DNA of 64,000 bases from an uncultured Candidatus Marinamargulisbacteria bacterium (GTDB lineage: Bacteria; Margulisbacteria; Riflemargulisbacteria; GWF2-35-9): positions 5,844-69,843 of the forward strand of contig CAIWAN010000052.1 in the NCBI GenBank assembly GCA_903910705.1. The letters run 5' to 3'. The notes under the pieces were generated by a model. That model made no database searches and had not been told where the DNA came from. It saw nothing but the letters and a program-made list of their open reading frames with translations. Position numbers and translations under genes: made by a program. Below are positions 2,495 to 47,682 of the stretch, piece after piece. Numbering within the stretch: the stretch's first letter is position 1; each line of letters begins with the position of its first letter.

Positions 2495-3814
2495 CTACTC
2501 CTCCCGCATTAACTTCAAGAACATCGCAGCGTCATTGGTCTGCATCGTCGAGAGCAGTTTTGCCTTCTTTTTGACCGACATTTTATCAAGGATCTTTTTG
2601 CATTCTGGGGGCGACAAATGCTTCCAAATAACCAAGACGTCATCGGGGGGCACCTTTTCCCAGACCCGAATGAACTGTTGAAAGTTTTTTGAGGGTTCCT
2701 CTGTCAACGTCCCTCGCGTCATTTCTTTGTAATACGTCGCAACTTTTTCAGATGGCAGGGCAACAAATAACTTGGTAACGGTTCTGTCCGACAGAGCCAA
2801 TAAAATATCTTCGACGGCTTTGTTATTCATTCGCGTAAATATCGGCGGCAAGGCATTGATGTCCATCTTTTCGTAAACAGCCGCTAGTTGTCGACGTTTC
2901 TTTTTGGCCTCTTCGACAACATTCACCGTTGGCTGAACCGCCACCCCATTTGTCTCGGTCGGGGCTATTGACGCAGACGGCATTTGGGGGATCGCAGGCA
3001 GCAAAAAGGACGCGGCCGGAACATCTTGACCATCGGGCGGAGGCGGCTCATCGATACCAACAACCCCCATTGCAACGCGGGTACTATTTATCCATTGGTA
3101 CAACAAATGGCGGGGGGGCACATTGAGACCGATCGCATCCTCACGACTCACTTGAAACATCTCTTGCTTTCCGAGCATCGCACAGTAACTTCCCGAACTA
3201 ATAAGAGGGACTAATTCATTGAAATCAGCATGGAGATTTACCGCATCATACAGGCGTTGCGCGACTTGTTTGGTTCGAATATACGGTGTTTTGCTGCCCT
3301 GTCCGACGAGGATCTTCATGATCTGAACATTATCGACCCAGAGTTCTGAAAATTCTTTATTTTTTACAATATTTCGGATGACCCGAAATCGATACAAAAA
3401 AGGAGGCGTCTGTTCCGAACTCTCAATATCGGCGACCTCTCTGATATCGAGATTAAACTCGCCAATTCGCTTGATTTGATTTTGAGCCGAAATACGTTCC
3501 TTGGCCCACGCAACACGTTGTTCTTGAGCAGCAATTTTCTGAACGGTACTCGCTATAAAAGGCAACCGATAGGCCACTCTCTTTGGCAAATATCCCATAA
3601 AGGCCAAGTTGGCGATGACTAAATACAAAAGAAAGATCAACAAAAAGAGACTCAATGCGATGAGAATACCTGACACAACGGAACGTCTAACCCGTTGAGG
3701 GTCTAGTTTCTTTTTCGGGTGTTTTAGGCGGCGCTTATGGGTTTTGACCTTTTTTGCTGCTTCCGCTCTGCCTTGTTCTTCATCCATGATCGTTATCATA
3801 TCAAAGATTCGCAC
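2495..3814 (-). CDS. membrane-anchored protein with a C-terminal helical MgtE_N/FliG-like domain; possibly a flagellar accessory protein of the YlxF/MotE type
   Basis: 439 aa with an N-terminal basic region and one TM helix (ILIALSLFLLIFLLYLVIANLAF). It is divergent from fliK. The functional assignment is weak. Confidence 0.4.
   Translation of the reverse strand: MRIFDMITIMDEEQGRAEAAKKVKTHKRRLKHPKKKLDPQRVRRSVVSGILIALSLFLLIFLLYLVIANLAFMGYLPKRVAYRLPFIASTVQKIAAQEQRVAWAKERISAQNQIKRIGEFNLDIREVADIESSEQTPPFLYRFRVIRNIVKNKEFSELWVDNVQIMKILVGQGSKTPYIRTKQVAQRLYDAVNLHADFNELVPLISSGSYCAMLGKQEMFQVSREDAIGLNVPPRHLLYQWINSTRVAMGVVGIDEPPPPDGQDVPAASFLLPAIPQMPSASIAPTETNGVAVQPTVNVVEEAKKKRRQLAAVYEKMDINALPPIFTRMNNKAVEDILLALSDRTVTKLFVALPSEKVATYYKEMTRGTLTEEPSKNFQQFIRVWEKVPPDDVLVIWKHLSPPECKKILDKMSVKKKAKLLSTMQTNDAAMFLKLMREE
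2497..2530. repeat. Right copy of the 34-bp direct repeat. It forms the actual 3-prime end of gene 2495-3814.
   Basis: Identical to 1541-1574. Confidence 0.9.
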
Positions 3815-12211: not shown

Positions 12212-13279
12212 ATGGCCGATCCCTCTCGTTCGGAAAAAGCGACCACTCGGCGACGACAAGACTATCGCAAAAAGGGCAGTGTCGCAAAAAGTGTCGAGAT
12301 CAATACGGCCGCGATCCTCTTGGCTGCCTTCATATATTTAAAGTTTGCTGGTGGGTTCATTTATGGACATTTACTTCAAATATTCCGATTCTATTTCGAA
12401 AATTTGAACACCATCGATGTCCAACAAGAGAGCCTACTAAATGTTGCCTTTAATGCTACCTTCCATATTGTCATTCTGACAGTGCCCTTTCTGCTATTTA
12501 TGATGCTGGTCGTCATGGTGGCCTCTTGGCTTCAAATAGGATTTATGTTTACCCTTGAGCCCATAAAACCCAGTTTCAGCAAGATCAACATTCTCAAAGG
12601 ATTTCAGAATTTATTCAGTAAACGCTCCCTCGAAACCCTCATCAAATCCTTGGCTAAGGTCATCATTATCGGCTATATCGTCTACTCGACCATTCGAAAA
12701 GACATTCCGATCATGCTCGACTTTTTCAATATCCCCATTGAAAATGCTTTTCTCATTCTTTGTAAACTCGCCATGGACGTTTTGTTAAAGATCATCCTTG
12801 CGTTTGTTGTTCTGGCAGGGATCGACTATCTCTTTCAACGATGGCAACTTGAGGAACAAATGAAAATGACAAAACAAGAGATCAAAGAAGAATATAAACG
12901 GACCGAAGGTGATCCGACGATCAAAGCCGAGATCCGCCGTCGTCAACACGAAATGGCTCGTCATCGCATGATGCAAGACGTTCCCAAAGCCGACGTGGTC
13001 GTTACGAATCCCATTCATGTAGCTGTTGCGATCAAATACAATGCTGCCGAGATGCGGGCTCCTATCGTTGTCGCCAAAGGCATGAATCTCGTTGCCGAGA
13101 AGATCAAGCAACTCGCTTCTGAGAACGACATTCCGATGGTAGAAAATCCACCCTTGGCGAGAGCCCTTTATAAATCCGCAAAGGTTGGCAAAGAGATCCC
13201 CGCCGATATGTACTCGGTTGTAGCCGAGGTATTGACCTATTTATATCGACTTAAGGGGAAAACGTTTGGGGTTATTTAA
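12212..13279 (+). CDS. flhB: flagellar export switch protein FlhB
   Basis: FlhB architecture, with a conserved C-terminal cytoplasmic domain (TNPIHVAVAIKYN...). Confidence 0.9.
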   Translation: MADPSRSEKATTRRRQDYRKKGSVAKSVEINTAAILLAAFIYLKFAGGFIYGHLLQIFRFYFENLNTIDVQQESLLNVAFNATFHIVILTVPFLLFMMLVVMVASWLQIGFMFTLEPIKPSFSKINILKGFQNLFSKRSLETLIKSLAKVIIIGYIVYSTIRKDIPIMLDFFNIPIENAFLILCKLAMDVLLKIILAFVVLAGIDYLFQRWQLEEQMKMTKQEIKEEYKRTEGDPTIKAEIRRRQHEMARHRMMQDVPKADVVVTNPIHVAVAIKYNAAEMRAPIVVAKGMNLVAEKIKQLASENDIPMVENPPLARALYKSAKVGKEIPADMYSVVAEVLTYLYRLKGKTFGVI

Positions 13280-15110
13280 GGTTCGACAGATGGACTTGAT
13301 TTCCTTTGATTCGAGCAAGCATGACGTCGACACCCCCAACCGATAATGCTTCTGTCATTTCAAGGGGACTCGGCATCGGGATCGACTGGTTCCCAATTTG
13401 CAGCTGTGTTCCCGATAACGACGAAGATAGCATCATCAGCGCGGTTGAATCAATCTTCCCCATACCTGACAGAAGATCTTTGATTCGTTCAAGCAAGGCA
13501 GCATCGGGCGCAACACCCGCCTGCTGAAGGAGTTGCAACATTTCCTCCGGATCCGTCATTGACATCAACTGCTCAATTAACGCTTCTGGCGAGATTTTTT
13601 CGCCCGTATCATCCAATAGCGCTTGCAACCCATTGTCTGACATCATTTTCTTGAAAAGTTCCATGAAATTTTGAGGCTGGGAGGGGGCACTTACGATCAC
13701 GACCGTTCCGATCATCTCAACCACGGCCCCTTTAGCCTTGCTCATATCGAATTTCACTCCATCGATATCCAGCACCATAAAATTCGTGTCCATGATCGCC
13801 AGATTGCCTCGATAATCAAAGGCCAGATTACCATTTTGATCAACAGCGATCCCCACCGTCACGGTCAAAACGATGAGTTTTCCGCCCACCCGAATGAAGA
13901 TCTGCTTATTGTACGGTCGCATGGTGATTTCTTTTTTCTTTACGGTAAGTTTAAGGTGATCGCCCTCCATCGTGATATTGGCTTTTTTAGGAAGCGACAC
14001 CCGACTCTCACCATAACGAAGCAGACGTTTACGGCCATTGAGGGACAGTCCTTCGCCAAATTTTAGCGATCCTCGAACAACCTCAACCGTAGCGCCCTTT
14101 TCAAACTGGACACCGATCCCATCAGACTGAACATGGGCCTGAGCCAATTGAACCCTAACCAGCTGATGATCAAGTTCAAAGGCAACATGTCCCTGATTAT
14201 CGACCACCGCATTCGTTCGAGGGGACATCAGCAGATGGCTCCCTCCCAAGGAAAGTTGCACTTTATCTGCAATAGTCATAAATTGAAGTCGTTGCGTTGC
14301 CTTCTGCTCATTAACCAGAACCTCGACGCTATCCTCCATGATGATCAGACGAGATTGCCAAGGCACTTTGATGGCATTCTTTCCCAGCTTCATCACGCCT
14401 CGTTGGAAATCAAAACTCATGATGTCACCGAATTGAAGGCCTTTTCCTGCCATCAACACAGGAAGATCGATCGGGTTATACGAAACACGATAGGGCCCAC
14501 ACTTAACCGAGCGATCGCGAAGATTCATCACCGCGACATCACCCGCTAGATCAAAAGCTAGGATCGCATGTTCATCAAGGTATCCATTGGTTGCGTCCAT
14601 CCATTGGATCGTTGTCGGCCCCAGTTTGATCTGTGCTGCCCCCGAAGCGAATGAGACAATAACCGGTTCATCGCACCCATCAAGAACGATCCCCACTTCA
14701 GAATCGCTCATCCCCAGTTCACAGTTTGAGGGAATTTGAAGTTGATTCTGTAGGATCGATAAAATACGTAGGGTTGAGTCGTATCGGACACCGTTAGGAA
14801 ACAACAACCCTTCATCGTCTTGAACGACCGCCCCGCCCATCATGAGATGGGCCACGATATTCTTATCTTTAAATATTAAATTGTCTTGCTCTTGTCGTAG
14901 GTGATGTCGCGACACGACATACGTACTAACGGTCACGTCGCTTTCATCCGTTTCTTCGCTCACAACAAGGTCTTCCTTGTCCACCGCTTCAAAGAGAGTT
15001 GACATGGTCACGAGGTTTTCTAACGACTCAAAAAGACCGACCTCGTCAATCGTATCAACAACGATCGACTGCGTAGACGGAGCGACAAGTGTTTGTTGTT
15101 GATCTTGCAT
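13272..15110 (-). CDS. hypothetical beta-rich repeat protein (612 aa) with a helical C-terminal tail
   Basis: Internal units of about 35-60 aa, for example GIVLDGCDEPVIVSF, HAILAFDLAGDVAVMNL, NGNLAFDYRGNLAIMD. There is no Walker A motif, so it is not FlhA or FlhF. A GGAGA RBS precedes the start. Its stop overlaps the flhB stop by 8 bp. Confidence 0.5.
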   Translation of the reverse strand: MQDQQQTLVAPSTQSIVVDTIDEVGLFESLENLVTMSTLFEAVDKEDLVVSEETDESDVTVSTYVVSRHHLRQEQDNLIFKDKNIVAHLMMGGAVVQDDEGLLFPNGVRYDSTLRILSILQNQLQIPSNCELGMSDSEVGIVLDGCDEPVIVSFASGAAQIKLGPTTIQWMDATNGYLDEHAILAFDLAGDVAVMNLRDRSVKCGPYRVSYNPIDLPVLMAGKGLQFGDIMSFDFQRGVMKLGKNAIKVPWQSRLIIMEDSVEVLVNEQKATQRLQFMTIADKVQLSLGGSHLLMSPRTNAVVDNQGHVAFELDHQLVRVQLAQAHVQSDGIGVQFEKGATVEVVRGSLKFGEGLSLNGRKRLLRYGESRVSLPKKANITMEGDHLKLTVKKKEITMRPYNKQIFIRVGGKLIVLTVTVGIAVDQNGNLAFDYRGNLAIMDTNFMVLDIDGVKFDMSKAKGAVVEMIGTVVIVSAPSQPQNFMELFKKMMSDNGLQALLDDTGEKISPEALIEQLMSMTDPEEMLQLLQQAGVAPDAALLERIKDLLSGMGKIDSTALMMLSSSLSGTQLQIGNQSIPMPSPLEMTEALSVGGVDVMLARIKGNQVHLSNLK

Positions 15111-17452
15111 TAGGCTGTCTCCACGATGGTCATAACGCTATATCGATCGGCACTTGGCAACTCATCCATCATGCTAGACTCTTCTTTTAGCCGACTCATG
15201 AGTTTCATCATTTCTCGATGGCGAACCACAAGCTGAGGAAGATCCATTTCGGACAAACGAACCCCGATCATGTCGACTTCTTTTCGCGTGATCTCGAACA
15301 TACGATGATTCGACTCATCTCGAAGTTTGTTAAACTCAGTCTTATCGATCTTAATCCCCGCTTTATCCGCGTTCTTGAGTATTCCTTTTATTTTATGCTC
15401 AATAAGCGTATAGGCCGGTCCTTGTAGCTCATAGAGGGTTGAGCGCTCCTCAAGAGCCTCCCGCAACATGTCCAAAATATTATCTTTAGCGACCAGTTCC
15501 GCTTCTTTTTGGATTTTGTCATTGAGCACATCGGTATAAACGCCCAATTTCATGAGCCCATTCTTCAACTTCCGAATTTTAAATTCAGTGTCCAACGTCG
15601 TCCGAAGCCCCGGTGAAACGGCTCGCTGAAGATAAAGAGCCCGAAGTCGATTGATAAAAATATCCTTCTCGTCGTTTTCTTGATATTCATAGCCATGTTT
15701 CTCGCGTTTATGTTGCTGTTGTCCACTGTCACCCGTGTTGACATTAACACTCATGCCCGCTATTTTTGAGGGATCGATCGTGATCTTTTCTTTTGCTAAG
15801 CCCAAATTCTTCATCATGGCTTCCATCGCTGTCTGAGCCCACTCTTCGGTGATCTTGGGGTTATTGGTTATTTTATTCAGATCGGATACTTTTTGCTCAA
15901 AATCACGGATCTTGCCGGCTTTGTCTTTTGAGGCATCCAACGAGGCTGACATGACGAACTGGCCCAATTCATCAACGGCGAAATCAGCCAAGTCTTTGCT
16001 GGCAAAGTACATCGCCTTATTGATCATGCCTTGGAACCCGTCATCAAAGTTACCAAAATCTTGACCACCTAATAACATATTGTTAACAAAATAATCGGTA
16101 AACTTATTCAGTCGCGCATCCCCCGCTGCCGAATCATATTGATCAAGAAGGCTGAGTTGTTTATTTAAAATGGCATCTTTAATGTCGCTTCGGATCTCAT
16201 CTTTAACCGATTTTTTAACGGCAAGCTGAATATCCTTTAGCTGTCGGGATGTTAAGCCATATTCTTTGAGCAACGACTCTTCTTGCTTGCCCACTGCGAA
16301 CAAATCCTTCTTATTACTGATCAGACTGGTTCGCAGACTTTGCGTGTACTTTTCGATAGCAACATCTCGAGTATCCGTTTCGTCTGTTGGCTTTGGTCTT
16401 TGTTTTGATATTTGAACCGGCTCGTCGCGGTCACGACTTTGATCTCTACCACCCGAACCATCCGATTGATCCCCTGAACTGGCAACCTGAATACGTCCAC
16501 CCTGTGCCGCTTCGATATCATCATCTTTTTGTTGATCGGCATCAACCTTGTCTTTCGCTTCGACATCTTTATCTTCATCTGTCTCCGTTTTTTCCGTGGA
16601 TTCTACGTCAGCCCCCTCGATCGAAGCAACCTGACTTTTGGGATCTTTCGATGCCTGTTTCAGCCCCTCGAGCCGATCTTGATCCGATTGCTCACTCTGA
16701 GCCTTTGCATCCGATCGATCATCTGAATCGGCGCCTTCATCAGAAAGCCCTATAATGCGCTGATCCCGCGAGAGCCCCGTAGAGGATTTATCCTGAACAA
16801 GCCCACTCTCTTGACCTTCATCTGAAGTGACTTTTTCGTCAAGGGGGTTCATCTTCTCCCCTGCGTCAGACGAAGCATCGGGTAAAAGCGTCTTCTCCAG
16901 AATACTATCACTTGATAGCTCTAGTTTTTGAATTTGATTACGGATGGAATTATGATCCGTTGACAAATGATCCTCGAGTCCACGTTGGCTCTGGGCTTGA
17001 TCGACTTCATCAGCAGGAGAAGCCGCTTCCGAAATTTTCGCTCGGTCTGCTTTTGCTGTACTTACCGCCTGTGTTAGCTGCCCCATTCGAGCACTGGCAC
17101 TGATCGTTACCTCGTCGGTTGACAAGGGAGATGCGCCAAAAAGCAGTTTCAGGTCACTCGTGAGCCCCGAATCTTTGCGGCCTTTATCTGATGAGGTCAG
17201 GATGTCGGACCCTGTACTCGCAACCTTTTGGATAAAGTCTTTTAAGAGATCTTTCTTCGCCTCGGTTTCTTTCCCCTGAATAATCTGCTGGATGGGCGAA
17301 CGAACCTCAACCTTATCTTTTAATTGAGTTTGTTGTTGGGTTTGACGAATGTCGGCATTGATCTCGTCAGTAGATTGGAGGACAACCTTCTGGATGTCAT
17401 CGGTATTGACATTGACGCGTCGTTGCACATTCGCTTGATGACTTAATTCCAT
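15110..17452 (-). CDS. hypothetical acidic low-complexity protein (780 aa): a D/E/S/K/Q-rich, probably disordered N-terminal 450 aa and a more globular C-terminal roughly 330 aa
   Basis: AGGAGA RBS. Its stop overlaps the downstream start (TAATG). No motif I recognise. Confidence 0.5.
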   Translation of the reverse strand: MELSHQANVQRRVNVNTDDIQKVVLQSTDEINADIRQTQQQTQLKDKVEVRSPIQQIIQGKETEAKKDLLKDFIQKVASTGSDILTSSDKGRKDSGLTSDLKLLFGASPLSTDEVTISASARMGQLTQAVSTAKADRAKISEAASPADEVDQAQSQRGLEDHLSTDHNSIRNQIQKLELSSDSILEKTLLPDASSDAGEKMNPLDEKVTSDEGQESGLVQDKSSTGLSRDQRIIGLSDEGADSDDRSDAKAQSEQSDQDRLEGLKQASKDPKSQVASIEGADVESTEKTETDEDKDVEAKDKVDADQQKDDDIEAAQGGRIQVASSGDQSDGSGGRDQSRDRDEPVQISKQRPKPTDETDTRDVAIEKYTQSLRTSLISNKKDLFAVGKQEESLLKEYGLTSRQLKDIQLAVKKSVKDEIRSDIKDAILNKQLSLLDQYDSAAGDARLNKFTDYFVNNMLLGGQDFGNFDDGFQGMINKAMYFASKDLADFAVDELGQFVMSASLDASKDKAGKIRDFEQKVSDLNKITNNPKITEEWAQTAMEAMMKNLGLAKEKITIDPSKIAGMSVNVNTGDSGQQQHKREKHGYEYQENDEKDIFINRLRALYLQRAVSPGLRTTLDTEFKIRKLKNGLMKLGVYTDVLNDKIQKEAELVAKDNILDMLREALEERSTLYELQGPAYTLIEHKIKGILKNADKAGIKIDKTEFNKLRDESNHRMFEITRKEVDMIGVRLSEMDLPQLVVRHREMMKLMSRLKEESSMMDELPSADRYSVMTIVETA

Positions 17453-17460
17453 AACATCTC

Positions 17461-17679
17461 CTATGAGATTTCTAGAATTCGTTGGGTTAAGCGGGTAATT
17501 CGATCTTTAGCCGTGGACTGTTCTTCTTGACGATAGAGCTTGGCAAGGCGAGCTTCGTGAACCTCAATACGCTTCAGCATATTGTTGGCCAACGAGCCGA
17601 TCTTTACAATTTTGAGTTCAAGCTCGTGACGGGGTGATAGCCCCAACTCGGTTTGCTCGCCAACCATGACTTGTTCCAT
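17461..17679 (-). CDS. hypothetical small coiled-coil protein (72 aa)
   Basis: Strong GGAGGGG RBS. It is the first gene of the three-gene minus-strand operon. Confidence 0.45.
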   Translation of the reverse strand: MEQVMVGEQTELGLSPRHELELKIVKIGSLANNMLKRIEVHEARLAKLYRQEEQSTAKDRITRLTQRILEIS

Positions 17680-17763
17680 TATTCCCCTCCAAGGTAAAGA
17701 CTTTGCCCCTATCTATATATAGACAAATTCTAGCTTTTTTATGTATGGATTCTTTGTGGTGGG

Positions 17764-18294: not shown

Positions 18295-19608
18295 ATGAAA
18301 CGTCAAATCGAATCAAAACTGCAAAGATGGAAAGAAACTGACGCTCGAAAACCCTTGATTCTGAATGGGGCAAGGCAGATTGGAAAAACATACAGCCTCA
18401 TTGAGATTGGTAAAACAAATTTTCGCAACCTCATCTACATAAACTTTGAAGCACAGCCCGATTATAAAAGGATCTTTGATCGCGACGTAGAACCTTTACG
18501 AATACTTCAAGAGATCAATATGCTTTTGGGCACCTCGATAAAGGCAGGGCAGGATCTCCTTTTCTTTGACGAGATACAAGAGTGCCCTCGCGCGCTCACG
18601 AGCTTGAAATACTTCTGCGAAACCCTACCGGACCTTCATGTTTGTGCCGCGGGATCTCTTCTTGGACTTGAACTCAACGAAGCTGCCTTTCCGGTCGGGA
18701 AAGTCGAGATGCTCGACATGCATCCCCTCTCGTTTCATGAATTTTTATTAGCGGCGGATGATAAGCTTGCGGCCTTAACAGAGCAATCAGCTGTCGTTCC
18801 CGAGGCCATCCATAAGCGGCTCTGGGATTACTTAAAAAAATACTTTATCCTCGGAGGTCTTCCTGAGGTCATTGCTAGCTACATTCAACATGCAGGCGAT
18901 GAAGCCACTGCGTTTGAAAACGCACGCCAAGTTCAACTTCAACTCATACAGGGCTATATTGCAGATATGGCCAAACATTCCGGCAAACAAAATGCGATGC
19001 ACCTTGAACGAATTTGGAAAAACATCCCCGTTCAGCTCGCTCGAAAAGTTGATCTAACCACGTCGAAATACTCGTTCAAGGGGGTAATACCCAAAATCGA
19101 TCGATATTCGCGTCTTGTTGGAAGTCTCGACTGGCTAGAAAAGGCCGGACTGGTGATTCGTGTACCCATTTTAGACCACATTGACCTGCCATTATCGGCT
19201 CAAGTTCAAGAAAACACCTTTAAACTATATATTTTTGACGTAGGGCTCTTGGGAGCTCTTTCCGGACTATCTCCCCAGACCCTCTGGGCCCAAGATTATG
19301 GCTCATATAAAGGCTATTTTGCCGAGAACTTCGTCGCACAAGAACTCATAGCACACGGCAGAAGGCCCTTGTTTGGATGGGAAGGCCGTACGTCCGAAGT
19401 TGAATTCGTCCTCGATATTGCGGGAAAGATTATCCCTGTCGAGGTAAAGGCTGGCCATATCACTCGTTCACAAAGCATGAACGTTTATCAATCAAAATTT
19501 GCCCCACAAAAAGGATTTCTGCTGAGCGCCAGAAACGCGCCCCTCATCGAATCCACATGGATCACTCATCTTCCGCTTTATCAAGCGAGTAAGATTGGCC
19601 TGTCTTAG
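18295..19608 (+). CDS. AAA+ ATPase of the AAA_14/DUF4143 family
   Basis: Walker A GARQIGKT. The length and C-terminal region are typical of DUF4143 ATPases. Confidence 0.75.
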   Translation: MKRQIESKLQRWKETDARKPLILNGARQIGKTYSLIEIGKTNFRNLIYINFEAQPDYKRIFDRDVEPLRILQEINMLLGTSIKAGQDLLFFDEIQECPRALTSLKYFCETLPDLHVCAAGSLLGLELNEAAFPVGKVEMLDMHPLSFHEFLLAADDKLAALTEQSAVVPEAIHKRLWDYLKKYFILGGLPEVIASYIQHAGDEATAFENARQVQLQLIQGYIADMAKHSGKQNAMHLERIWKNIPVQLARKVDLTTSKYSFKGVIPKIDRYSRLVGSLDWLEKAGLVIRVPILDHIDLPLSAQVQENTFKLYIFDVGLLGALSGLSPQTLWAQDYGSYKGYFAENFVAQELIAHGRRPLFGWEGRTSEVEFVLDIAGKIIPVEVKAGHITRSQSMNVYQSKFAPQKGFLLSARNAPLIESTWITHLPLYQASKIGLS

Positions 19609-20183: not shown

Positions 20184-21335
20184 CTAATCCAACAGTTTTC
20201 CAGTCGCCAAGCTCTCTTGGAATTTCTTGAAAGGCCAAATACAAATATTATCCTCGGTCAGCAATTCTTTCTCACCCAGATAGACAAAGATTCGTTTGCG
20301 AAGCCCTGTTAATGGGGCAATGGCCCTTAACCCCACAAGTTCTTCATTTCGGAGTCGTTCTTGAGCTTTCACCTCGATAGCCCAGAATTCATCGCCTCGT
20401 TTTAACAAAAAATCAACCTCCGTTTTAAGCGTTTCACTGGGTGCCCAATAGAAAATCTCATCATAGAAAGGATGGGCTTGATTGTAGGCGCATAGCATCG
20501 AAAACACATAACCTTCAAGCAAGGCACCTCGCTCATCGGGGCTGACTTCATACCACCGCTTTTTTATCGCACGAACCAACCCAGGGTCAACCCAATATAG
20601 TTTGGGGTGTTTCTTTTCTCGAACCCTTAATTGCGGAACAAATGCTTCGAGTTTGGTCGCCAATAATGTATCGCTAAGAATCTCTAAATAACCTTCTACG
20701 GTGTTTCTTGCCACTTGCGCATCTCGAGCTAACGAGCTGACATTCAAAACTTGCCCATGGAACAAAGAGGCGACTGGCAAAAAACGTGAGAACGCAGGAA
20801 GGTTGCGAACCAAGGCTTCTGACTTAATTTCTTCTCGTAAATACGTCAACACGTAGGCTTCAAGGGTTTCTCGGGGACTATTCGAAGCCACGACGATCGG
20901 AAGAGACCCATATTGAAGAATAGCCGACAAATTAAAATCCTCCCCCATTTCATCGGGCACAAAAGGATACATGTGCTTCATCAAGGCTCTGCCGGCCAGC
21001 AAGTTCACACCCTCTCGTTTTAACTTGCGTGCAGAAGACCCTGACAAAACGAACTTGAGGCTTTTTTCTTCGATGAAAAGGTGAACATAATTCAAGAGAT
21101 GCGGCACTTTCTGAACTTCATCCAGCACAACCCAAGATCCATTGGGCAAGGCCCGCAACTCATCCGCAAATCGTTTGGGTGTCGCCAATAACTCTTGGTA
21201 AAGCGCCTCGTCAAGGAAGTTGAAGAAAGTCGCCTCTTTGTAATGTTGCCTCAACCACGTACTCTTCCCCGTGCCGCGGGGCCCGAATAAAAAGAAAGAC
21301 TGATTCTGCTCGTGAAAATATATTCTTTTGTACAT
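20184..21335 (-). CDS. AAA+ ATPase of the AAA_14/DUF4143 family (second copy)
   Basis: Walker A GPRGTGKST and Walker B VVLDEVQ. Confidence 0.75.
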   Translation of the reverse strand: MYKRIYFHEQNQSFFLFGPRGTGKSTWLRQHYKEATFFNFLDEALYQELLATPKRFADELRALPNGSWVVLDEVQKVPHLLNYVHLFIEEKSLKFVLSGSSARKLKREGVNLLAGRALMKHMYPFVPDEMGEDFNLSAILQYGSLPIVVASNSPRETLEAYVLTYLREEIKSEALVRNLPAFSRFLPVASLFHGQVLNVSSLARDAQVARNTVEGYLEILSDTLLATKLEAFVPQLRVREKKHPKLYWVDPGLVRAIKKRWYEVSPDERGALLEGYVFSMLCAYNQAHPFYDEIFYWAPSETLKTEVDFLLKRGDEFWAIEVKAQERLRNEELVGLRAIAPLTGLRKRIFVYLGEKELLTEDNICIWPFKKFQESLATGKLLD

Positions 21336-29142: not shown

Positions 29143-30225
29143 ATGGAGTTTGTAAGCCATGCTGGGTTTGAAGATTATAACAGCGGTGACGCTGAGTCGT
29201 TTTCAGGCGCAAACTATTTAACCCCCGACGATATCCTAGAGATTATTGCCGAACCCGAAAACAATCTCGATCAGATCGAGAATCTACTTGATCGTGGCGT
29301 CGATATCGTTAAAGAAATCCCCGAGGAGCCCGCCGAAGAACCACCTTCAGCCCCCGAGGCAGCTGAGGTTAGCGATGACAAAGAGGCTAAAACCTCCGAT
29401 GTCGTTAAAATGTACCTCAAAGAGATCGGCAAAGTCAGTCTATTGAATCTGGCGGAGGAGCAGCACATCGCCAAGCTCGTCAACGAAGGTGATCTGGTCG
29501 CCAAACAACAATTGATCGACGCCAACCTTCGTCTCGTCGTGAGTATCGCTAAAAAATATATCGGTCGAGGTATGGCCTTTCTTGACCTCATTCAAGAGGG
29601 CAATATCGGCCTCATTCGTGCCGCTGAAAAGTTTGACTATCGAAAGGGTTACAAGTTCTCGACCTATGCAACATGGTGGATACGCCAAGCCATTACACGT
29701 GCCATTTCCGATCAATCACGCACCATTCGCATCCCCGTTCATCTGGGGGAGACCATGAGCAAACTTCGAAAAGCCTCTCGCGTTCTCATGCAAGAAAAAG
29801 GACGCAAGCCCACCGAAGAAGAGCTTTCAGTCTTCATGGATATGCCGATCGAAAAGATCCGCGAGATCTTTCGCTCATCGTTAACACCTATATCACTAGA
29901 AACACCGATCGGTGACGAGTCTGACAGCAGCAAACTGGGTGACTTTGTCAAAGATGATAAAACCGAGACCCCCGAATCAAATCTCTTTCGGAATTTGCTC
30001 AGACGAGATCTCGACGAGATCATGTCTGAACTTTCAGAACGTGAACGAATGGTTATTAAACTCCGCTTTGGGCTGGTTGATGATCGCCCACGCACACTTG
30101 AAGAAGTTGGAAAGGTCTATGATGTCACCCGCGAGCGAATCCGGCAGATCGAGGCCAAAGCCCTCAAAAAGCTTCGACATCCTTCCCGCCTGAAAAAGCT
30201 TCGAGGGTATTTGCAAGAGGCTTAG
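29143..30225 (+). CDS. RNA polymerase sigma factor of the sigma-70 family, primary-like (RpoD/RpoS group), with an acidic N-terminal extension
   Basis: Regions 1.2 to 4 are present (YLKEIGKV..., [62 protein letters not shown]). Confidence 0.85.
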
Positions 30226-30228
30226 AGC

Positions 30229-32259
30229 ATGAAAGTACAGCTGTCCTTAACGCCTCAGGAACAGCTTGTTTTTCTAAAAGATCTCGATGAACACCTCCTC
30301 CAAAGCGAGAATGCACTTGTAGAGCTTGAACACGGCGAGAATGAAACCAGTAGCATCGAACAACTTTTTCGTAGTTTTCATACCATCAAGGGGAACAGTG
30401 GTATTGCCGATTACACCCTGCTCCACGACCTGACTCATGAGATCGAAAGCGTCCTTTCGGTTTACCGAGCTAAAAAACGTCAAGTTTCAGAGGGATTGAT
30501 CAGTTTATTGTTTAAATCTATCGACCTTATGCGATCCCTTCGAGCCCCCATTCTCAGCCCCAAAACCGACGTAGAAACCGAACCGGTTGAGGCACTCATC
30601 CGTGAAGCGAAGTTGTTCCTTTCAAAGCCAGAAGCGTCAGAAAGATCGATCTCTGCCCATTCCGAACTTGATAAAGACCCCCATCTCCACAACAATATGA
30701 GCATTTACATTAATCTGACCGAACCCATGCCTGCCGTTAGAGGGTTTCAAGTCCTTCAACTTATTGAAAAATCAGGCATAGACTACACCTCCGAGCCTAC
30801 CTTTAATGAAATAAAGGCAGGTAACATCCAAAACCCGATTAACATCCAACTTTCGCCAACAGGACTCGCTGAATTTATTGAAAAACTTATCCCCTCTCTT
30901 TCGACCCATGACGGGGTAAAAGCCATCCATATCCAATACCCTCAACCCAACAATCCAAATAAGACAAAACCCAAAACACTCTCCGAAGCGATCACACAAG
31001 ATACGGAAGAAGAGCTACAAGAAATTCAGATCAATATCCGAAAACTAGATGGACTGATCAATCTGCTCGGCGAAATTCTCATTGATCGGAACAAAATATC
31101 CCAAAACATTCTTCGATTAGAGGAAAAATATAGCATTGACCCCCATGTCATGGAGCTTCTCGACCTTGTCAATCATCTCGGGAAGATCACCTACAATCTT
31201 CAAACAGAGCTGTTGAACATACGAACCATTCCCTTGAATAATATCGTCGAGAAATATCCTCGCCTTATTCGAGAACTGGGTCATCAGCTGGGGAAAAAAG
31301 TGAAACTCGAGATCACCGGGCAACATGTCGAATTGGATCGACTTATTCTTAAACATCTAAACGAACTCATTATTCACCTCATTCGGAACTCAGTTGATCA
31401 TGGGATCGAATCCCCAGAGTACCGACTTGCAAGAGGGAAAAAAGAGTTAGGCACCATTCGAATTGACGCCCATCAAAAGCATAATAAAGCCCATTTTGTG
31501 ATTTCCGATGATGGGAACGGCATCGACCCCAATAGCATCCGAGAATCGCTGGTTAGAAAAAATATCCTCGAAAAAGCAGAAGCCCAACGCACCTCCGACC
31601 AAGAGATCATTCGATATATCTTCTATCCAGGGTTCTCAACAAAAGATGAAGTCTCTGAAATATCTGGACGCGGTGTCGGCATGGATGTCGTACAAAATAC
31701 GATTCAAAAGCTGGGTGGACAAATATCCATCGATAGCGAGAAAGGGGTGGGGACCAGTTTTCGGATTACCTTACCCTTAACGCTCGCCATTATTCATGGA
31801 CTGGTGACCCAAGTAAACAAGAAAACGTTTGTTATCCCCATAAACTATGTTGAGGAGGTCTTGCGATGCCGAGGCGAAGATGTTCGGATCATGAACAAAA
31901 AACCTCATATCATTTTGCGAGACACCTTGATCCCCCTTGTAAACTTGACTGCGTTACTTTATGGCAACAACCTCGACATTGCAAAGAGCGGAAAACTCTT
32001 CATTGTCGTTGTTGTCTATAATGATAAACCCACGGGGATCGTCGTAGATAAACTTCTCGGCGAAGAAGAAATCGTTATAAAAAATATTGACTATGCTGCC
32101 GACAAATACTATATAATCCATTCAGCAACGATAATGGGGACAGGTGATGTCGGATTGATCCTTGATATTGCGTCACTCCTCGACTATCTAACCATGCATA
32201 GAGAGGAATCAGCTCGGATCTTAGTATCCGACACAAATCATGAAAATACTCATCGTTGA
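30229..32259 (+). CDS. cheA: chemotaxis histidine kinase CheA
   Basis: HPt motif FHTIKGNSG, an HATPase domain and a C-terminal CheW-like domain. Confidence 0.9.
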   Translation: MKVQLSLTPQEQLVFLKDLDEHLLQSENALVELEHGENETSSIEQLFRSFHTIKGNSGIADYTLLHDLTHEIESVLSVYRAKKRQVSEGLISLLFKSIDLMRSLRAPILSPKTDVETEPVEALIREAKLFLSKPEASERSISAHSELDKDPHLHNNMSIYINLTEPMPAVRGFQVLQLIEKSGIDYTSEPTFNEIKAGNIQNPINIQLSPTGLAEFIEKLIPSLSTHDGVKAIHIQYPQPNNPNKTKPKTLSEAITQDTEEELQEIQINIRKLDGLINLLGEILIDRNKISQNILRLEEKYSIDPHVMELLDLVNHLGKITYNLQTELLNIRTIPLNNIVEKYPRLIRELGHQLGKKVKLEITGQHVELDRLILKHLNELIIHLIRNSVDHGIESPEYRLARGKKELGTIRIDAHQKHNKAHFVISDDGNGIDPNSIRESLVRKNILEKAEAQRTSDQEIIRYIFYPGFSTKDEVSEISGRGVGMDVVQNTIQKLGGQISIDSEKGVGTSFRITLPLTLAIIHGLVTQVNKKTFVIPINYVEEVLRCRGEDVRIMNKKPHIILRDTLIPLVNLTALLYGNNLDIAKSGKLFIVVVVYNDKPTGIVVDKLLGEEEIVIKNIDYAADKYYIIHSATIMGTGDVGLILDIASLLDYLTMHREESARILVSDTNHENTHR

Positions 32260-32602
32260 TGATTCCCCTTTAATTATCAAGCGTCTTGGCGAGTTTCTCT
32301 CTGATTTAGGCCATCAGGTCATTATTGCTTATGACGGCAAAGAATCGATGGTCGCTTACAATCAAGAACTTCCTGATCTCGTCTTTATGGACATCCTGAT
32401 GCCAGGTCCCGATGGGATTAGCGTCATGAGAAGCATCATTTCTAAGCATGCCAAAGCACGGATCATCATCATGAGCAGCATGGGGCAGCAATCCAAGGTT
32501 ATTGAGGCGATCCAGTACGGCGCCATCGATTTTATCGTAAAACCGTTTGAACCCTCGAAGATTCTGCTCGCACTCGAAAAAGCAACAAACACCCTTTCAT
32601 GA
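32240..32602 (+). CDS. cheY: chemotaxis response regulator CheY
   Basis: Single REC domain (ILIVDDS..., DILMPG..., K residue) that overlaps the cheA stop. Confidence 0.85.
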   Translation: MKILIVDDSPLIIKRLGEFLSDLGHQVIIAYDGKESMVAYNQELPDLVFMDILMPGPDGISVMRSIISKHAKARIIIMSSMGQQSKVIEAIQYGAIDFIVKPFEPSKILLALEKATNTLS

Positions 32603-33354
32603 TCATCCCTATCGAGGCCCTTCCTAAAGCCATCCTCATTTCAACATTGCTTTCAGAGGTTTTTCGAATGGCTATTCCCGTTTTGTTGATATTAGCTTTC
32701 CGTCAAAAAAATAATATCCCCATCCGTAGTTTCTTGTTTGGGATTGGCCTCGCACTATTAACGGGAGGAAAGTTCTTATTTCTTATAAAACAACAACTCT
32801 TTTCAGGATGGGGCCCTGTTTATGTTGTCCTTATTAGCATCCTCGTTGAATGGCTAGTCAGAGAATGGGTCGTTCATCGTTGGGATCAATGGGAAAGCAA
32901 AGCCGTCGCTATTCAATTCGTTGCTGGATACTTGTTTACAAAGATATTCCTCCTTGGACTAAGCTATTTTCTTATATCCTCAATAAATTTTGTACTACTG
33001 TCAAATCACTCCGATTCAGCCAAAGAAATCATTCAAAGTATTCAGCCTCTTCTTAGCCATATTCTACTCGTTTTCCAGAGTGTTTTTCATCTTGGATATA
33101 TTTTCATATTATTCATCTTCATAATTATTCGGGTCCGACTCAAAACGAATCCTTTGTGGCAACGGTTTTCTGTAGAGGCATTATTCATATTTCTACAGGG
33201 GTTTATCCTCCTTGTAGATATGGCTGCCATTAACGATCCAAGAGCCCCTATCGGTGCACTCTTTTTTGCAGTTATATCTGGAACCGTTGGCCTCGGGTAT
33301 TACTTGATAAGATCGATCAATGAACTTCCAGAAGCACCTTCGATCGCTTCGTAA
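32599..33354 (+). CDS. hypothetical polytopic membrane protein
   Basis: About 7 predicted TM helices. It has EW..RE and F...H motifs weakly reminiscent of CPBP proteases. Confidence 0.45.
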   Translation: MIIPIEALPKAILISTLLSEVFRMAIPVLLILAFRQKNNIPIRSFLFGIGLALLTGGKFLFLIKQQLFSGWGPVYVVLISILVEWLVREWVVHRWDQWESKAVAIQFVAGYLFTKIFLLGLSYFLISSINFVLLSNHSDSAKEIIQSIQPLLSHILLVFQSVFHLGYIFILFIFIIIRVRLKTNPLWQRFSVEALFIFLQGFILLVDMAAINDPRAPIGALFFAVISGTVGLGYYLIRSINELPEAPSIAS

Positions 33355-33892
33355 GGGAGGCGTTCTCGCCATCCCCACTGACACGGTATATGGCCTTGCG
33401 TGTCTAGCATCCATTCCTTCAGCCGTAGATAAAGTTACCATCATCAAACAACGTGACGAGCGGAAACATTATGTCCTTCAAGTGGCCACGCTTGCAGATG
33501 CAAAAGCCCTCGTTCATTTCGATCAGCACGCCATACTTCATAAGGTTTCACAATACTGGCCCGGCGAGATCACCTTTGTCTTTAAAAAGGCACCTCACCT
33601 TTCCTATTCATTCCTTGGGCCGACGATCGCGATACGCATTCCGAATCTCGCCCTCACCCTATCACTATTAACCGAAGTGAATGAACCCCTTGTCGTGACT
33701 AGCCTCAATCGCTCGGGATACCCGCCCATATTATCAGCACAGGATATTCCAGTCGATCTTCGAAAGGAGCTCGATGGCGTCATTGTCTTCGACCAGCCTC
33801 TTTCCAACATTCCCTCCACCATCGTCGACCTCAGTCAATCGATCCCGAGAGTATTACGAGAAGGAAAGATTAAATTTTCTCTATCTTTGTAA
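33320..33892 (+). CDS. tsaC: L-threonylcarbamoyladenylate synthase (YrdC/TsaC family)
   Basis: AIPTDTVYGLA and the YrdC fold length. Confidence 0.8.
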   Translation: MNFQKHLRSLRKGGVLAIPTDTVYGLACLASIPSAVDKVTIIKQRDERKHYVLQVATLADAKALVHFDQHAILHKVSQYWPGEITFVFKKAPHLSYSFLGPTIAIRIPNLALTLSLLTEVNEPLVVTSLNRSGYPPILSAQDIPVDLRKELDGVIVFDQPLSNIPSTIVDLSQSIPRVLREGKIKFSLSL

Positions 33893-33917
33893 CACAGGCA
33901 AATGTATAATAATCACT

Positions 33918-34847
33918 ATGGAAACTGAGAACACTCTTAAACTTATTGATTTTCGCGTTTCAAAAAAAGACAGCAAGGGGAACATTCAAGAGCAGGTCTT
34001 CGGTATCAACGTCTATAAAGTTAAAGAAGTTATTTTCCGCCCCCCCAAATTAAATACAATGCCCAATAAATCCGAATTTATTGAAGGGATCATCAATCTT
34101 CGAGGCCATGTTATCCCAATTATTAATCTTCAAAAAAGACTAGGTTATGCCTCCGACGATATACTCTGCGATTATTTTATTATTTCAGAATGCAATAATA
34201 TTGTATTTGGGTTTATGGTCCATAAAATCATGAAGATCAGGCTCATTAAATGGGATGATGTTTTTGCGCCCCCAGAGGAGATTAAAAACTCATATGGAGA
34301 TCTGGTTACATCGATGACCGTTATCGAAAACAAAGAGATCATGCTAATTTTAGATTTTGAAAAAATCATTTCAGACCTCGACGAGAACACCATTGATATC
34401 AAAAGTCATGTTGAATCAATGAATAGCGCGCCCCCCCCATCTTCAGACAAATCAAAAACCGTCCTTTGCATTGATGATTCTGGCATTGCAAGAAATATGA
34501 TTCGACAAACTCTTGAAACAGCCGGATACGATTTCATCGAAGCCGTAAACGGGATTGATGGGCTTCAAATGATCAAAAACCTTTCGGATGAAGCTACCTC
34601 AGAGGGGCGTGCGCTAGCTGATAAGATCGGGGTCATTCTTTGCGATGTCGAAATGCCCCTTATGGATGGATTTACGTTCACCAAAACGATAAAAGCAAAC
34701 CCTCTCTACCGAAACATTCCGGTCATCATTCACTCCTCTCTCAGCAAAACCATTCTTTCTGACCGAGGAAATAATGTTGGCGCGGACGACTACCTTACAA
34801 AATTCAGCATCGAAAATTTACTCGCCTCTGTACGAAAATTCCTGTGA
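33918..34847 (+). CDS. cheV: chemotaxis coupling protein CheV (CheW domain plus REC)
   Basis: N-terminal CheW-like domain and C-terminal REC (VLCIDDS..., ILCDVEMPLMDG). The start was set to the in-frame ATG at 33918. Confidence 0.8.
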   Translation: METENTLKLIDFRVSKKDSKGNIQEQVFGINVYKVKEVIFRPPKLNTMPNKSEFIEGIINLRGHVIPIINLQKRLGYASDDILCDYFIISECNNIVFGFMVHKIMKIRLIKWDDVFAPPEEIKNSYGDLVTSMTVIENKEIMLILDFEKIISDLDENTIDIKSHVESMNSAPPPSSDKSKTVLCIDDSGIARNMIRQTLETAGYDFIEAVNGIDGLQMIKNLSDEATSEGRALADKIGVILCDVEMPLMDGFTFTKTIKANPLYRNIPVIIHSSLSKTILSDRGNNVGADDYLTKFSIENLLASVRKFL

Positions 34848-35206
34848 ACATCTTAGCTGTTGACGACAAAAAGGACATTTTAACGCTCATTAAAACAATC
34901 CTCGAATTTGAAGGACACACGGTGACAGATGTCGATAATGGTGATGATGCCATCATGGCTTGTGGAACAACATCATTTGACCTGATTCTATTAGATCTGA
35001 TGATGGACGGCAAAGATGGGTTTACCACCCTTGATATCATTCGACGATCAACGTTCAACGCCTCAACTCATGTTATTGCGCTCACAGCAAAAGCCTACAA
35101 CAGTGACCGAACGTTGGTACTAACTCGTGGATTTAATGATCACATTGCAAAGCCCTTCAGAGCCGCTGAACTGATCCAAAAAGTTGCGTTGCTTTCAAGA
35201 AAATAA
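34844..35206 (+). CDS. single-domain response regulator (REC only)
   Basis: ILAVDDK..., LILLDLMMDG..., AKP. Confidence 0.8.
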   Translation: MNILAVDDKKDILTLIKTILEFEGHTVTDVDNGDDAIMACGTTSFDLILLDLMMDGKDGFTTLDIIRRSTFNASTHVIALTAKAYNSDRTLVLTRGFNDHIAKPFRAAELIQKVALLSRK

Positions 35207-44473: not shown

Positions 44474-45487
44474 CTAATTTGCAAAGATCTGATTAATCTT
44501 TATCGCATAGTGTTTGTCTGAAACGCCCAAGGCGGCACCAAACTTGTTTAATCCGCCGACTTTGACAAGCAAGTCTTCTGTTTTCTTAGTTCGCAAAGTG
44601 ACAATATCACCGACCTGCAAATGAATAACCTCTTCAACGGTGACATCGGCCTTGCCAAGCTCAGTAGAGATGTCGACCATAGCTATTGCCAAGTTTTCCT
44701 TCATCTCGGATTCCTTCTTAATAAACTGATGTTTGGAGCGACTGTACTGACTATCAATAAGCTGAGAAAGAACATGATCAATCGCAATATAGGGGATACA
44801 ATACGTAAAAATACCTAGCACATCGCCAATAGACAACTCGAAAACCATTTTCAATACGATATCATTCGGCTGAACAAGATGAATCACGCGAGGGTTTGTC
44901 TCAACAGAAATGATCCGAGGTAAATCCTTCATAACCTCGCCCCAACTTTCCTTTTGATGAACAAAAAGCTTATCTAAAATATTTCGAAGAATAATTAACT
45001 CGATATCGGTAAGATCTTGCCGATTGGTCCAAACATCAGCACCCTGCCCCCCCAGAATTTTTTCAACCATCAGCATCGCAATTTCGATATCAAAACTTAG
45101 AATGGCTTGATCATCCACAAAAGAAAGGATGTAATGTCGAGCCCGTTCATTACAGTCATCAATATATTCTTGATAAGTGTGCTGTTCGATATAAGGCAGG
45201 TTCACTTTGACGTCTTGTCGCAAATAAACCGACAATGAACCACTAAAAAGTCGAGCCATATTATCATGGAAACCTTTCAATATTCGAAGCAGATCTTTTG
45301 AGAATTTATTAGGACGTCGAAAGTCATACTTAACAATGTGCTGAAAAGCCTCTAAATGTCTCGGTTTGGAGATAAATTCTGTTTCGGATACCTGACTGGA
45401 TTGCGTCGGCGAGGATTCGGGCTCTTGCTCATCCATCACACCCATAAGGAGGGCATTGATCTCGTCTTGGGAGAGGATGCTACTCAT
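44474..45487 (-). CDS. fliM: flagellar motor switch protein FliM
   Basis: N-terminal CheY-P binding LSQDEINALL and FliM middle-domain blocks. Confidence 0.8.
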   Translation of the reverse strand: MSSILSQDEINALLMGVMDEQEPESSPTQSSQVSETEFISKPRHLEAFQHIVKYDFRRPNKFSKDLLRILKGFHDNMARLFSGSLSVYLRQDVKVNLPYIEQHTYQEYIDDCNERARHYILSFVDDQAILSFDIEIAMLMVEKILGGQGADVWTNRQDLTDIELIILRNILDKLFVHQKESWGEVMKDLPRIISVETNPRVIHLVQPNDIVLKMVFELSIGDVLGIFTYCIPYIAIDHVLSQLIDSQYSRSKHQFIKKESEMKENLAIAMVDISTELGKADVTVEEVIHLQVGDIVTLRTKKTEDLLVKVGGLNKFGAALGVSDKHYAIKINQIFAN

Positions 45488-46356
45488 TCGGCTTCTTCCA
45501 GTAGCTCCTCCTGCTTAAACTCATCCATAACACTCATCATCAACGTTTCAATATCAGCCGGTTTAAGAGAAAGCTTTTCCATTGATTTGGGTTGTAGCTC
45601 ATAATTCAGGCCATCATACCCAAGACCGATACCCAATAATTCGCTCACCATATCGGCAATATGAACCATATGGACGGTTATATTATCCTCAGGTGCACAT
45701 TGCGGATCATGATGGAACCGGATCGACTGAATAAGATCATCTGAAAGATTCCATTTCTCGGCTACTTTAGCGCCAATTTCTCCATGATTAAACCCTAGTA
45801 CCGTTTCTTCAGCCTGCAGGAACGTAATATTGCCCCCCCGAAATAAACGGATAACATCAACAAACTTTTGTTTAGCATATTGATCCAATACAACCTTCCC
45901 CACATCGTGAAGCAACCCCATGACATAAACTTCATCTGGATTGGGATATTTAAGCTGTGTGGCTAAGGTTCTGGCACCAATTGCAACAGAATAACTATGT
46001 TTAAAAAGTGCTCCCTTTTCAAGGGCATAGCTCATTACACCCTTATTGAACATTGAATGAGTAGAAGCGGTCAGTGCAATATATTTGATCGTATTATATC
46101 CAAGACAGACAACGGCGTGTGAAATCGTTTTGATCTGCTTTGAAAATCCATAATAAGACGAATTGGCTAATTTAAGAATTTTCGCCACCATCGCTTGATC
46201 TTTTTCAAGCGAAATAACAATTTCTTTAAGATCAGATTCTGGATCACGTGTTAACTGAATGAGTTTTTTGATAGTCGTAGGCAACGGCATCAAGTCATCT
46301 AACTTGGACACCAATTCATTAAAAAGTTCGCTATTTGCTTCGTCTACCATTCTCAA
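45484..46356 (-). CDS. HDOD-domain signalling protein
   Basis: HDOD-type HD-like fold (LGYNTIKYIALTAS...GLLHDVGKVVL). Confidence 0.7.
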   Translation of the reverse strand: MRMVDEANSELFNELVSKLDDLMPLPTTIKKLIQLTRDPESDLKEIVISLEKDQAMVAKILKLANSSYYGFSKQIKTISHAVVCLGYNTIKYIALTASTHSMFNKGVMSYALEKGALFKHSYSVAIGARTLATQLKYPNPDEVYVMGLLHDVGKVVLDQYAKQKFVDVIRLFRGGNITFLQAEETVLGFNHGEIGAKVAEKWNLSDDLIQSIRFHHDPQCAPEDNITVHMVHIADMVSELLGIGLGYDGLNYELQPKSMEKLSLKPADIETLMMSVMDEFKQEELLEEAE

Positions 46357-46361
46357 GCTCC

Positions 46362-47647: not shown

Positions 47648-47682
47648 AATTCCTTGTTTATCATACTACGGCATCAAAGATG

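Follow-up and report, generated by a model that had tools for sequence, protein, structure and literature searches.

The closest described counterparts of the genes reported here are the late flagellar operons transcribed with the sigma-28 factor FliA, namely flgMN, flgKL and fliDST of Escherichia coli and Salmonella, and those under sigma-D in Bacillus subtilis. A lineage-specific accessory operon of a sigma-28 regulon is a kind of system already known. We analysed a stretch of 64,000 nucleotides, hereafter the window, from an uncultured Candidatus Marinamargulisbacteria bacterium (assembly GCA_903910705.1, contig CAIWAN010000052.1, positions 5,844 to 69,843 of the forward strand), in which a minus-strand operon of three genes, g72, g780 and g612, faces the end of a flagellar export operon. 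Our preferred interpretation, to which we give a probability of roughly 45%, is that g72-g780-g612 represents a locally reduced version of a Margulisbacteria-wide gene set and belongs to a FliA-type late motility regulon. The three genes are real and conserved, their function is not deducible by homology, and the protein families and the wider cluster to which they belong are new. The features of the locus, in window coordinates, are as follows.

12212–13279, plus strand: flhB, last gene of the flagellar export operon (Pfam Bac_export_2, 3e-127; TIGR00328, 400 bits, above cut-off)
13272–15110, minus strand: g612, open reading frame (ORF) of 612 amino acids
15110–17452, minus strand: g780, ORF of 780 amino acids
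17461–17679, minus strand: g72, ORF of 72 amino acids
17717–17741, minus strand: candidate sigma-28-type promoter, with TAAA (17741–17738), 13 nucleotides (nt) and GTCTATAT (17724–17717), ending 37 nt before the g72 ATG

The original prediction had described three minus-strand ORFs with exactly these coordinates and sizes, and its account of the gene junctions was borne out in every detail. The stop codons of flhB (13277–13279, plus strand) and g612 (13272–13274, minus strand) mark an overlap of 8 bp between the two genes, a TAATG joins the g780 stop to the g612 start, and strong ribosome-binding sites precede g72 (GGAGG) and g780 (GGAG with an 8-nt gap). The plus-strand flagellar operon, as predicted, ends at flhB; within the window it comprises fliK, flgD, a small 'Flagellar_put' gene, flgE, fliL, fliN, fliO, fliP, fliQ, fliR and flhB. 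FliM, CheA, CheR, CheD, CheW and CheY are also encoded within the window of this flagellated, chemotactic organism. Like the FliA late operons, the locus has a small helical gene directly upstream of a gene for a large, cysteine-free protein without a signal peptide, and lies beside flagellar export genes; its relatives share the promoter type as well, which reads TAAA..GnCGATAa in them and CAAGTTT-N13-CCGATA in distant homologues. It differs from them in having no sequence or fold similarity to their products, in its convergence with flhB, in a window −10 element without the CGA core and in a wider cluster that contains giant proteins and many unknown families.

Sequence comparison identifies g72 and g780 as a gene pair conserved across the phylum and the core of a large family. 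We found 28 homologues of the C-terminal 420 amino acids of g780 through a word index of the protein database (E 1e-24 to 1e-174), and a profile of this region (g780C) retrieved 279 clusters (defined at 50% identity), with E ≤ 1e-30 for 218. Window g780 is 26–63% identical to 27 homologues (alignment A2), of which 16 contain an invariant NRLRALY, and it carries both motifs of the family, NRLRALY(M/L)Q and FK(I/M/V)RK(L/M)KNG. Nearly all named sources of the family, and all but a few of the 22 loci assigned to GTDB species, are Margulisbacteria, spanning Marinamargulisbacteria, Termititenax, Saganbacteria, WOR-1 and UBP8; one metagenome-assembled genome (MAG) is labelled Omnitrophota. The closest genome record is a 'Candidatus Marinamargulisbacteria' MAG (L014; related loci are given by such L numbers), with 90% identity over the g780 C terminus.

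Conservation along g780 divides the protein into three parts.

17063–17452, minus strand: residues 1–130, moderately conserved (orthologue identity 0.38–0.55 per 40-residue block), aligning with the N termini of Saganbacteria/WOR-1 homologues
16373–17062, minus strand: residues 131–360, a poorly conserved acidic and polar linker (identity 0.15–0.35 per 40-residue block; Asp plus Glu up to 40%)
15110–16372, minus strand: residues 361–780 including the stop, conserved and predicted to be all-helical with two domains, the defining part of the Margulisbacteria-restricted family

This anatomy replaces the proposed division into 450 disordered and 330 structured residues: the first 130 residues are moderately conserved, the linker covers only about 130–360, and the conserved, predicted helical part extends from about 361 to 760. 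The linker is an insertion relative to homologues of about 530 amino acids, in which it is gapped. AlphaFold modelled the conserved region as two helical domains with 15 helices (mean predicted local distance difference test score, pLDDT, 68), joined by a low-confidence loop rich in Gly, Gln and Asn (fragment residues 191–231). A Foldseek search of the PDB with this model gave no meaningful fold match (E > 0.1, template modelling score, TM, < 0.2). The polar hubs HubP, FimV and PopZ offer a likeness in their long acidic low-complexity linker and conserved helical C terminus. g780 differs from these proteins in having no LysM or FimV domain and no homology to them.

The partner gene g72 lies directly upstream of g780, as its relatives do upstream of g780 homologues, and encodes a single-helix protein of coiled-coil type. 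An alignment of g72 with 12 orthologues or analogues, covering 13 lineages (A6), defined the motif KI.KL.S.IK.VERRI..HE..L; the window has such a small coiled-coil gene, recognizable by KI.KL...IK..ERRI..HE..L, directly upstream of g780. In five loci the g72 motif is fused to the C terminus of another cluster protein, F1, which in L023 and L027 is split into two ORFs. The fusion ORFs are:

L023, 7953–8345: ORF joining F1 and the g72 motif
L027, 7696–8103: ORF joining F1 and the g72 motif
L029, 8629–9558: ORF joining F1 and the g72 motif
L030, 8635–9570: ORF joining F1 and the g72 motif
L031, 7780–8160: ORF joining F1 and the g72 motif

The fusion of the g72 motif to F1 in several lineages is an argument for g72, F1 and g780 acting jointly. 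None of the three window proteins has a transmembrane segment in a Kyte–Doolittle scan, and inspection of their N termini revealed no signal-peptide-like stretch. Cysteine makes up 0.08% of 41,435 residues of the g780 family and is absent from g72, compared with 0.05% in FlgE, 0% in FlgD and 1.1–2.5% in enzymes encoded at the same loci.

The strongest functional lead came from the promoters. We took as the mark of a FliA-regulon promoter the pattern TAAA(GTTT)-N11-15-GCCGATAA upstream of the operon. Upstream of g72, the blocks AT..ATAA and TG.C.ATA are invariant and at fixed spacing across eight orthologous regions that have otherwise diverged (alignment A7). In six related species (L012/18, L015, L016/38, L017, L020/37 and L041) the orthologous −10 element reads G[TG]CGATA[ATC], a form characteristic of sigma-28 (FliA/SigD) promoters, with TAAA 13 nt upstream; in L012/18, L015, L016 and L017 this TAAA-N13-G[TG]CGATA element lies 22–41 nt upstream of g72, and L020 and L041 have GTCGATAA and GGCGATAA. 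A relaxed pattern, TAAA-N12-16-CGATA, had seven intergenic, correctly oriented matches in 763 kb of loci, four of which are the g72 sites. The window itself has GTCTATAT at this position, as do its two closest lineages. Simple scans for sigma-70 promoters and for terminators gave chance-level results only.

Distant homologues of g780 have FliA-type promoters that are nearly canonical. In loci of Saganbacteria/WOR-1 type (L010:4400-13830, L011, L021-L034 and L042-L073), a rigid 26-nt motif, CAAGTTTTT..nCGATA, occurs 61 times on the strand of the cluster and never on the opposite strand, compared with 0.25 in shuffled sequence. It precedes almost every transcription unit of a cluster of 13–15 genes, lying 7–70 nt upstream of a giant gene (9 loci), the gene following g780 (7), the g780 homologue (6), F1 (5) and small paralogues. 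The motif closely resembles FliA promoters that have been mapped by experiment in E. coli, for example those of ycgR (TTAAGTTTTGTTAACTGTGACCGATAAA) and tar (TAAAGTTTCCCCCCTCCTTGCCGATAAC) (PMC4183435, Table 2). Because of the 61:0 strand bias and the position of the motif upstream of the cluster's genes, this cluster behaves as a sigma-28-type regulon. The original prediction had proposed a search for a flagellar-class promoter upstream of g72, and this check yielded a real signal: a conserved sigma-28-type element is present in six relatives and near-canonical FliA motifs in distant homologues. Its weak point is the copy in the window, which as a pattern match is at chance level.

In these Saganbacteria/WOR-1-type loci, the g72/g780 pair is embedded among unannotated genes encoding several proteins of 65–143 amino acids (some of them tandem paralogues), a protein of 540–840 amino acids, F1 (234–312 amino acids), the coiled coil, the g780 homologue, a variable helical protein of 400–700 amino acids and a giant protein of 1,800–2,600 amino acids. 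L010 has three tandem paralogues of about 120 amino acids with hairpin-T terminators. In some of the clusters the g780 homologue is immediately preceded by a gene for a family 2 glycosyltransferase with tetratricopeptide repeats (GT2-TPR), and a gene for a CgeB-like glycosyltransferase lies downstream. Flagellin glycosylation islands with TPR-glycosyltransferases of the FlmG, GmaR or FgtA type are similar in make-up, a point in favour of a motility link. The likeness lies in the GT2-TPR and CgeB-like genes and in candidate substrates without a signal peptide; the differences are that the window operon has no glycosyltransferase and that no cluster has a flagellin. Apart from g72 and g780, none of the cluster families is encoded anywhere in the 64-kb window, and g780 shows no relationship to F1, F30, F25, F42 or the giant proteins.

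To place the operon in its wider context, we clustered the ORFs of 76 related loci and compared their gene order. In the clade of the window, the order is a divergent RNase H gene, g72, g780, g612 and then, in convergent orientation, flhB-fliR-fliQ-fliP onward. This order is kept in the window, L001/14, L003/4, L008, L009, L016/38, L020/37, L039 and L041, and the convergent synteny with flhB persists down to 25% identity in g612 and 57% in FlhB. A separate flagellar association appears in marine loci of UBP8/ZB3 type (L013, L032 and L072), in which F1, a small coiled coil, an optional GT2-TPR gene and the g780 homologue are followed, 19–35 nt downstream and apparently in the same operon, by a gene for a 288-amino-acid protein of the FlgE/FlgG family. 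This FlgG-like protein is 35% identical to the N terminus of window FlgE and has a weak Flg_bbr_C match. The genes are located as follows.

L013, 11873–12739: FlgE/FlgG-family gene
L032, 11241–12107: FlgE/FlgG-family gene
L072, at the contig end: FlgE/FlgG-family gene

The third gene, g612, is restricted to one clade. AlphaFold predicted a disordered, acidic segment (residues 1–76), a beta region (78–475) of about 50 short strands with pLDDT 85–93, and helices at 482–551. The beta region consists of three repeats of about 122 amino acids built of antiparallel hairpins, each beginning with a (V/L)D..G.(L/V)AF(D/E) unit. The model and the repeat analysis both agree with the earlier description of g612 as short beta-strand repeats with a helical tail. 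A search of 5.8 billion proteins returned six matches, namely g612 itself and relatives at 83, 58, 61, 32 and 25% identity; extending the family profile added no members, and further distant orthologues turned up in the loci. All homologues that could be placed on contigs have the same arrangement. One species (L015) has no g612, and there g780 abuts flhB, so the core can probably do without this protein. Its place in Saganbacteria is taken by F30, which is not homologous to g612 (hhalign probability 0.1%). Since the gene after g780 is non-homologous between clades, g612 is best regarded as a clade-specific addition.

Searches for known relatives were negative throughout, in keeping with the earlier remark that the three proteins carry no recognizable motif: g72, g780 and g612 have no credible match in Pfam, NCBIfam, PHROGs or PDB sequences. 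For g72 this held in Pfam, NCBIfam, PHROGs and PADLOC, and the family profile (A6) had no significant match among PDB sequences; PDB profile searches with g612, g780, F1 and g72 were empty. When 33 diverse g780 members were searched against Pfam one by one, no weak family recurred, and among about 40 cluster proteins of other lineages only the GT2-TPR protein, the CgeB-like glycosyltransferase and the FlgG-like protein matched Pfam. Among the best 50 PDB matches by E-value, Foldseek compared the g612 model mostly with beta-propellers (TM about 0.1) and with no beta-helix protein, and over PDB and viral structures together the matches were limited to generic beta-propellers and phage fibres (TM about 0.1). 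We found no description of the g72, g780 or g612 families in the searchable literature. From PADLOC the three proteins drew a single match, weak and partial, in which about 90 residues of g780 aligned with a DRT model (19.8 bits). We rejected a phage or anti-phage defence origin on the basis of this lone weak match, the lack of any PHROGs match and the housekeeping flanks in all lineages.

The proposal that g612 is a FapA/DUF342 or PilZ protein is not supported, as PF03961 was not matched by g612 even at E ≤ 1 and PF07238, the PilZ domain with its RxxxR and D/NxSxxG motifs, was not matched at E ≤ 1 by any of the three proteins. g612 resembles FapA/DUF342 in having a beta-rich body with a helical tail and in adjoining flagellar genes; it differs in its three hairpin repeats of about 122 amino acids, in the lack of a PF03961 match and in a family limited to one Margulisbacteria clade. 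We likewise rejected FlgK, FlgL, FliD, FlgM, FlgN and FliS as identities, given the absence of Pfam and NCBIfam matches, the empty PDB profile searches and the Foldseek result for g780C (E > 0.1). The broader idea that these are known proteins diverged beyond recognition, with g72 a chaperone of the FlgN, FliS or FliT type or an FlgM, g780 a cap or junction protein of the FlgK or FliD type and g612 a FapA/DUF342 or PilZ protein, draws on the associated late-type promoters and on the order of a small helical gene followed by one for a large cysteine-free protein, which recalls flgN-flgK and fliD-fliS. We consider it highly improbable, because no relevant Pfam or NCBIfam match was obtained at E ≤ 1 (including for the 33 diverse g780 members), profile searches of the PDB returned nothing, the all-helical prediction for g780C lacks the beta head domains seen in FliD and FlgK and has no fold match, and g612 matches only generic beta-propellers (TM about 0.1). 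Furthermore, canonical flagellins have been reported in this phylum (PMC7018530).

The placement in a late motility regulon follows from reading the phylum-wide set as soluble, signal-peptide-less, cysteine-poor structural proteins transcribed from FliA-type promoters. On this sequence evidence, the operon, with its new protein families, probably belongs to a sigma-28 regulon; the evidence for a flagellar link is circumstantial, and the proteins may plausibly act in the flagellum itself. FliA–RNA polymerase would transcribe g72-g780-g612 at a late stage of flagellum construction. As a small coiled-coil protein, g72 may bind g780 as a partner or chaperone, a possibility supported by the g72–F1 fusion. 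g780 would be a helical scaffold whose two domains are accompanied by a flexible acidic linker, and it would either leave the cell through the flagellar type III apparatus or become part of an assembly at the base of the flagellum. g612 could serve as a lineage-specific beta-repeat adaptor. The original suggestion of an accessory module related to the flagellum or to type III secretion is thus retained in part: the promoter signal, the deep synteny with flhB, the FlgG-like neighbour in marine lineages and the cysteine-poor family favour it, whereas the FapA/PilZ identity and the significance given to the place where flhA and flhF would normally follow are not supported. That place has no demonstrated meaning: the operon is convergent with flhB, L012/L018 have no flhB there, and the Saganbacteria/WOR-1 clusters stand amid housekeeping genes.

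Several observations weigh against the late motility regulon. The convergent g72-g780-g612 operon is not co-transcribed with flhB, and its neighbourhood is not constant: in L017 three genes, including a ParDE toxin–antitoxin pair, separate it from flhB, and in L012/L018 the operon is kept with flhB absent on that side. The promoter copy in the window matches the pattern with one mismatch, which is not above chance (1.66 matches expected in the window); its −10 element, GTCTATAT, has CTA where relatives have CGA (T for G), so that the CGA core is missing, and the spacing from TAAA to the −10 element in this clade is 2 nt shorter than the E. coli/B. subtilis consensus. No fliA is present in the window, where the sigma factor at 29143–30225 is SigA. 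The Saganbacteria/WOR-1 clusters have housekeeping flanks and no canonical flagellar gene within 10 kb, and literature searches on Margulisbacteria motility did not show whether these lineages are flagellated, so that no evidence connects these clusters with flagella. Low cysteine content is typical of coiled-coil proteins generally, and searches by sequence and by fold linked none of the three proteins to any flagellar protein. Finally, sigma-28-family factors also run non-flagellar programmes, as in Streptomyces (WhiG) and Chlamydia (sigma-28). The regulons of WhiG and chlamydial sigma-28 are like the present case in that a FliA-type promoter serves genes that are not recognizably flagellar; they differ in that the operon here abuts a flagellar and chemotaxis set and is not known to be homologous to their targets.

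Two other explanations were considered. The chief rival holds that a sigma-28-family factor controls the g72/g780 core as part of a structure or developmental programme other than the flagellum, for instance a filament on the cell surface, an attachment organelle or a scaffold of the cytoskeleton or cell pole, and that in this clade the core lies beside flhB only by inherited gene order. It would account well for a Saganbacteria/WOR-1 cluster that consists entirely of unannotated genes (paralogues, giants and glycosyltransferases) between housekeeping flanks, for the retention of the operon in L012/L018 where flhB does not adjoin it, and for giant proteins that would be improbable cargo of the flagellar type III secretion system. 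It leaves unexplained why flagellar associations arose twice independently, with flhB in one clade and with a co-operonic FlgG-like gene in another, and why the organism has flagellar and chemotaxis genes; to our knowledge, a FliA-type sigma factor without flagella is also uncommon. We regard this explanation as doubtful, if a serious contender. A link to motility might also be lacking altogether, the genes encoding lineage-specific cytoplasmic proteins and the promoter resemblance and neighbourhood in the window being coincidental. The mismatched CGA core, with about 1.7 chance matches expected, the convergent rather than collinear arrangement with flhB, and a window over which flagellar and chemotaxis genes are so scattered that adjacency to one is not rare would all fit such a view. 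Coincidence sits poorly, however, with −35 and −10 blocks held at fixed spacing across eight otherwise diverged upstream regions and with the 61:0 strand asymmetry of the FliA motif in distant homologous clusters, and we judge it distinctly unlikely.

A more ambitious reading takes g72 and g780 as the core of an undescribed, sigma-28-controlled multi-protein apparatus found across Margulisbacteria, which would form a new extracellular or flagellum-attached structure. Its parts might include filament-like small subunits derived from the tandem paralogues, each gene of which has a FliA promoter and a terminator to itself, together with helical proteins of 500–800 amino acids, giant proteins of 2,000–6,600 amino acids and cytoplasmic TPR-glycosyltransferases, from families without known relatives. 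We hold this to be unlikely.

If the operon is in a FliA regulon, entirely new protein families join the late flagellar genes of a phylum that has been little studied and is sister to Cyanobacteria. The operon also leads to the larger, unannotated cluster of 13–15 genes in Saganbacteria/WOR-1, with its textbook sigma-28 promoters, and the sigma-28 link may be a lead to a new motility-linked structure. For annotation more generally, promoters conserved over orthologous loci yielded functional leads where sequence and fold searches had failed.

Other features of the window and its relatives touch on motility genes. The operon running from fliL and fliN through fliOPQR to flhB has fliN and no fliM between fliL and fliN; fliM lies about 35 kb away, at 44474–48360 (minus strand), with genes for an HDOD protein, cheR, cheD and a DnaJ-domain protein. 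A 439-amino-acid protein encoded at 2495–3814 (minus strand), divergent from fliK, has a C-terminal MgtE_N (FliG-like) domain as its only domain and keeps its position in L003 and L005. The sigma factor gene beside cheA was considered as a candidate fliA and rejected, its best PDB matches being the primary sigma factor SigA (1e-110). This sigA immediately precedes cheA, which is followed by cheY, a Sua5-like gene, cheW-REC and a second gene for a response regulator (29143–35206, plus strand), and sigA also adjoins cheA in L012. In L012/L018:14010-22202, from a Termititenax-labelled MAG, a ParDE pair and a Cas12a-Cas4-Cas1-Cas2 locus occupy the place of the flhB operon of relatives.

Beside the g72 operon, a dTDP-sugar isomerase gene has ATPase genes on either side, one at 18295–19608 (plus strand; AAA_14/DUF4143 in Pfam) and one at 20184–21335 (minus strand; a P-loop judged by eye). 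The AAA_14/DUF4143 gene may be a mobile insertion, as it is present in L004 and L006 and missing from L001. Finally, an ORF of 5,188 amino acids at 48374–63940 (minus strand) is rich in Ser, Asn, Asp and Thr, contains 0.2% Cys and has no PDB sequence match. It is unrelated to the giant proteins encoded in g780 clusters, and its final 80 or so residues resemble, by eye, a C-terminal sorting domain of the type IX secretion system/FlgD-Ig type.

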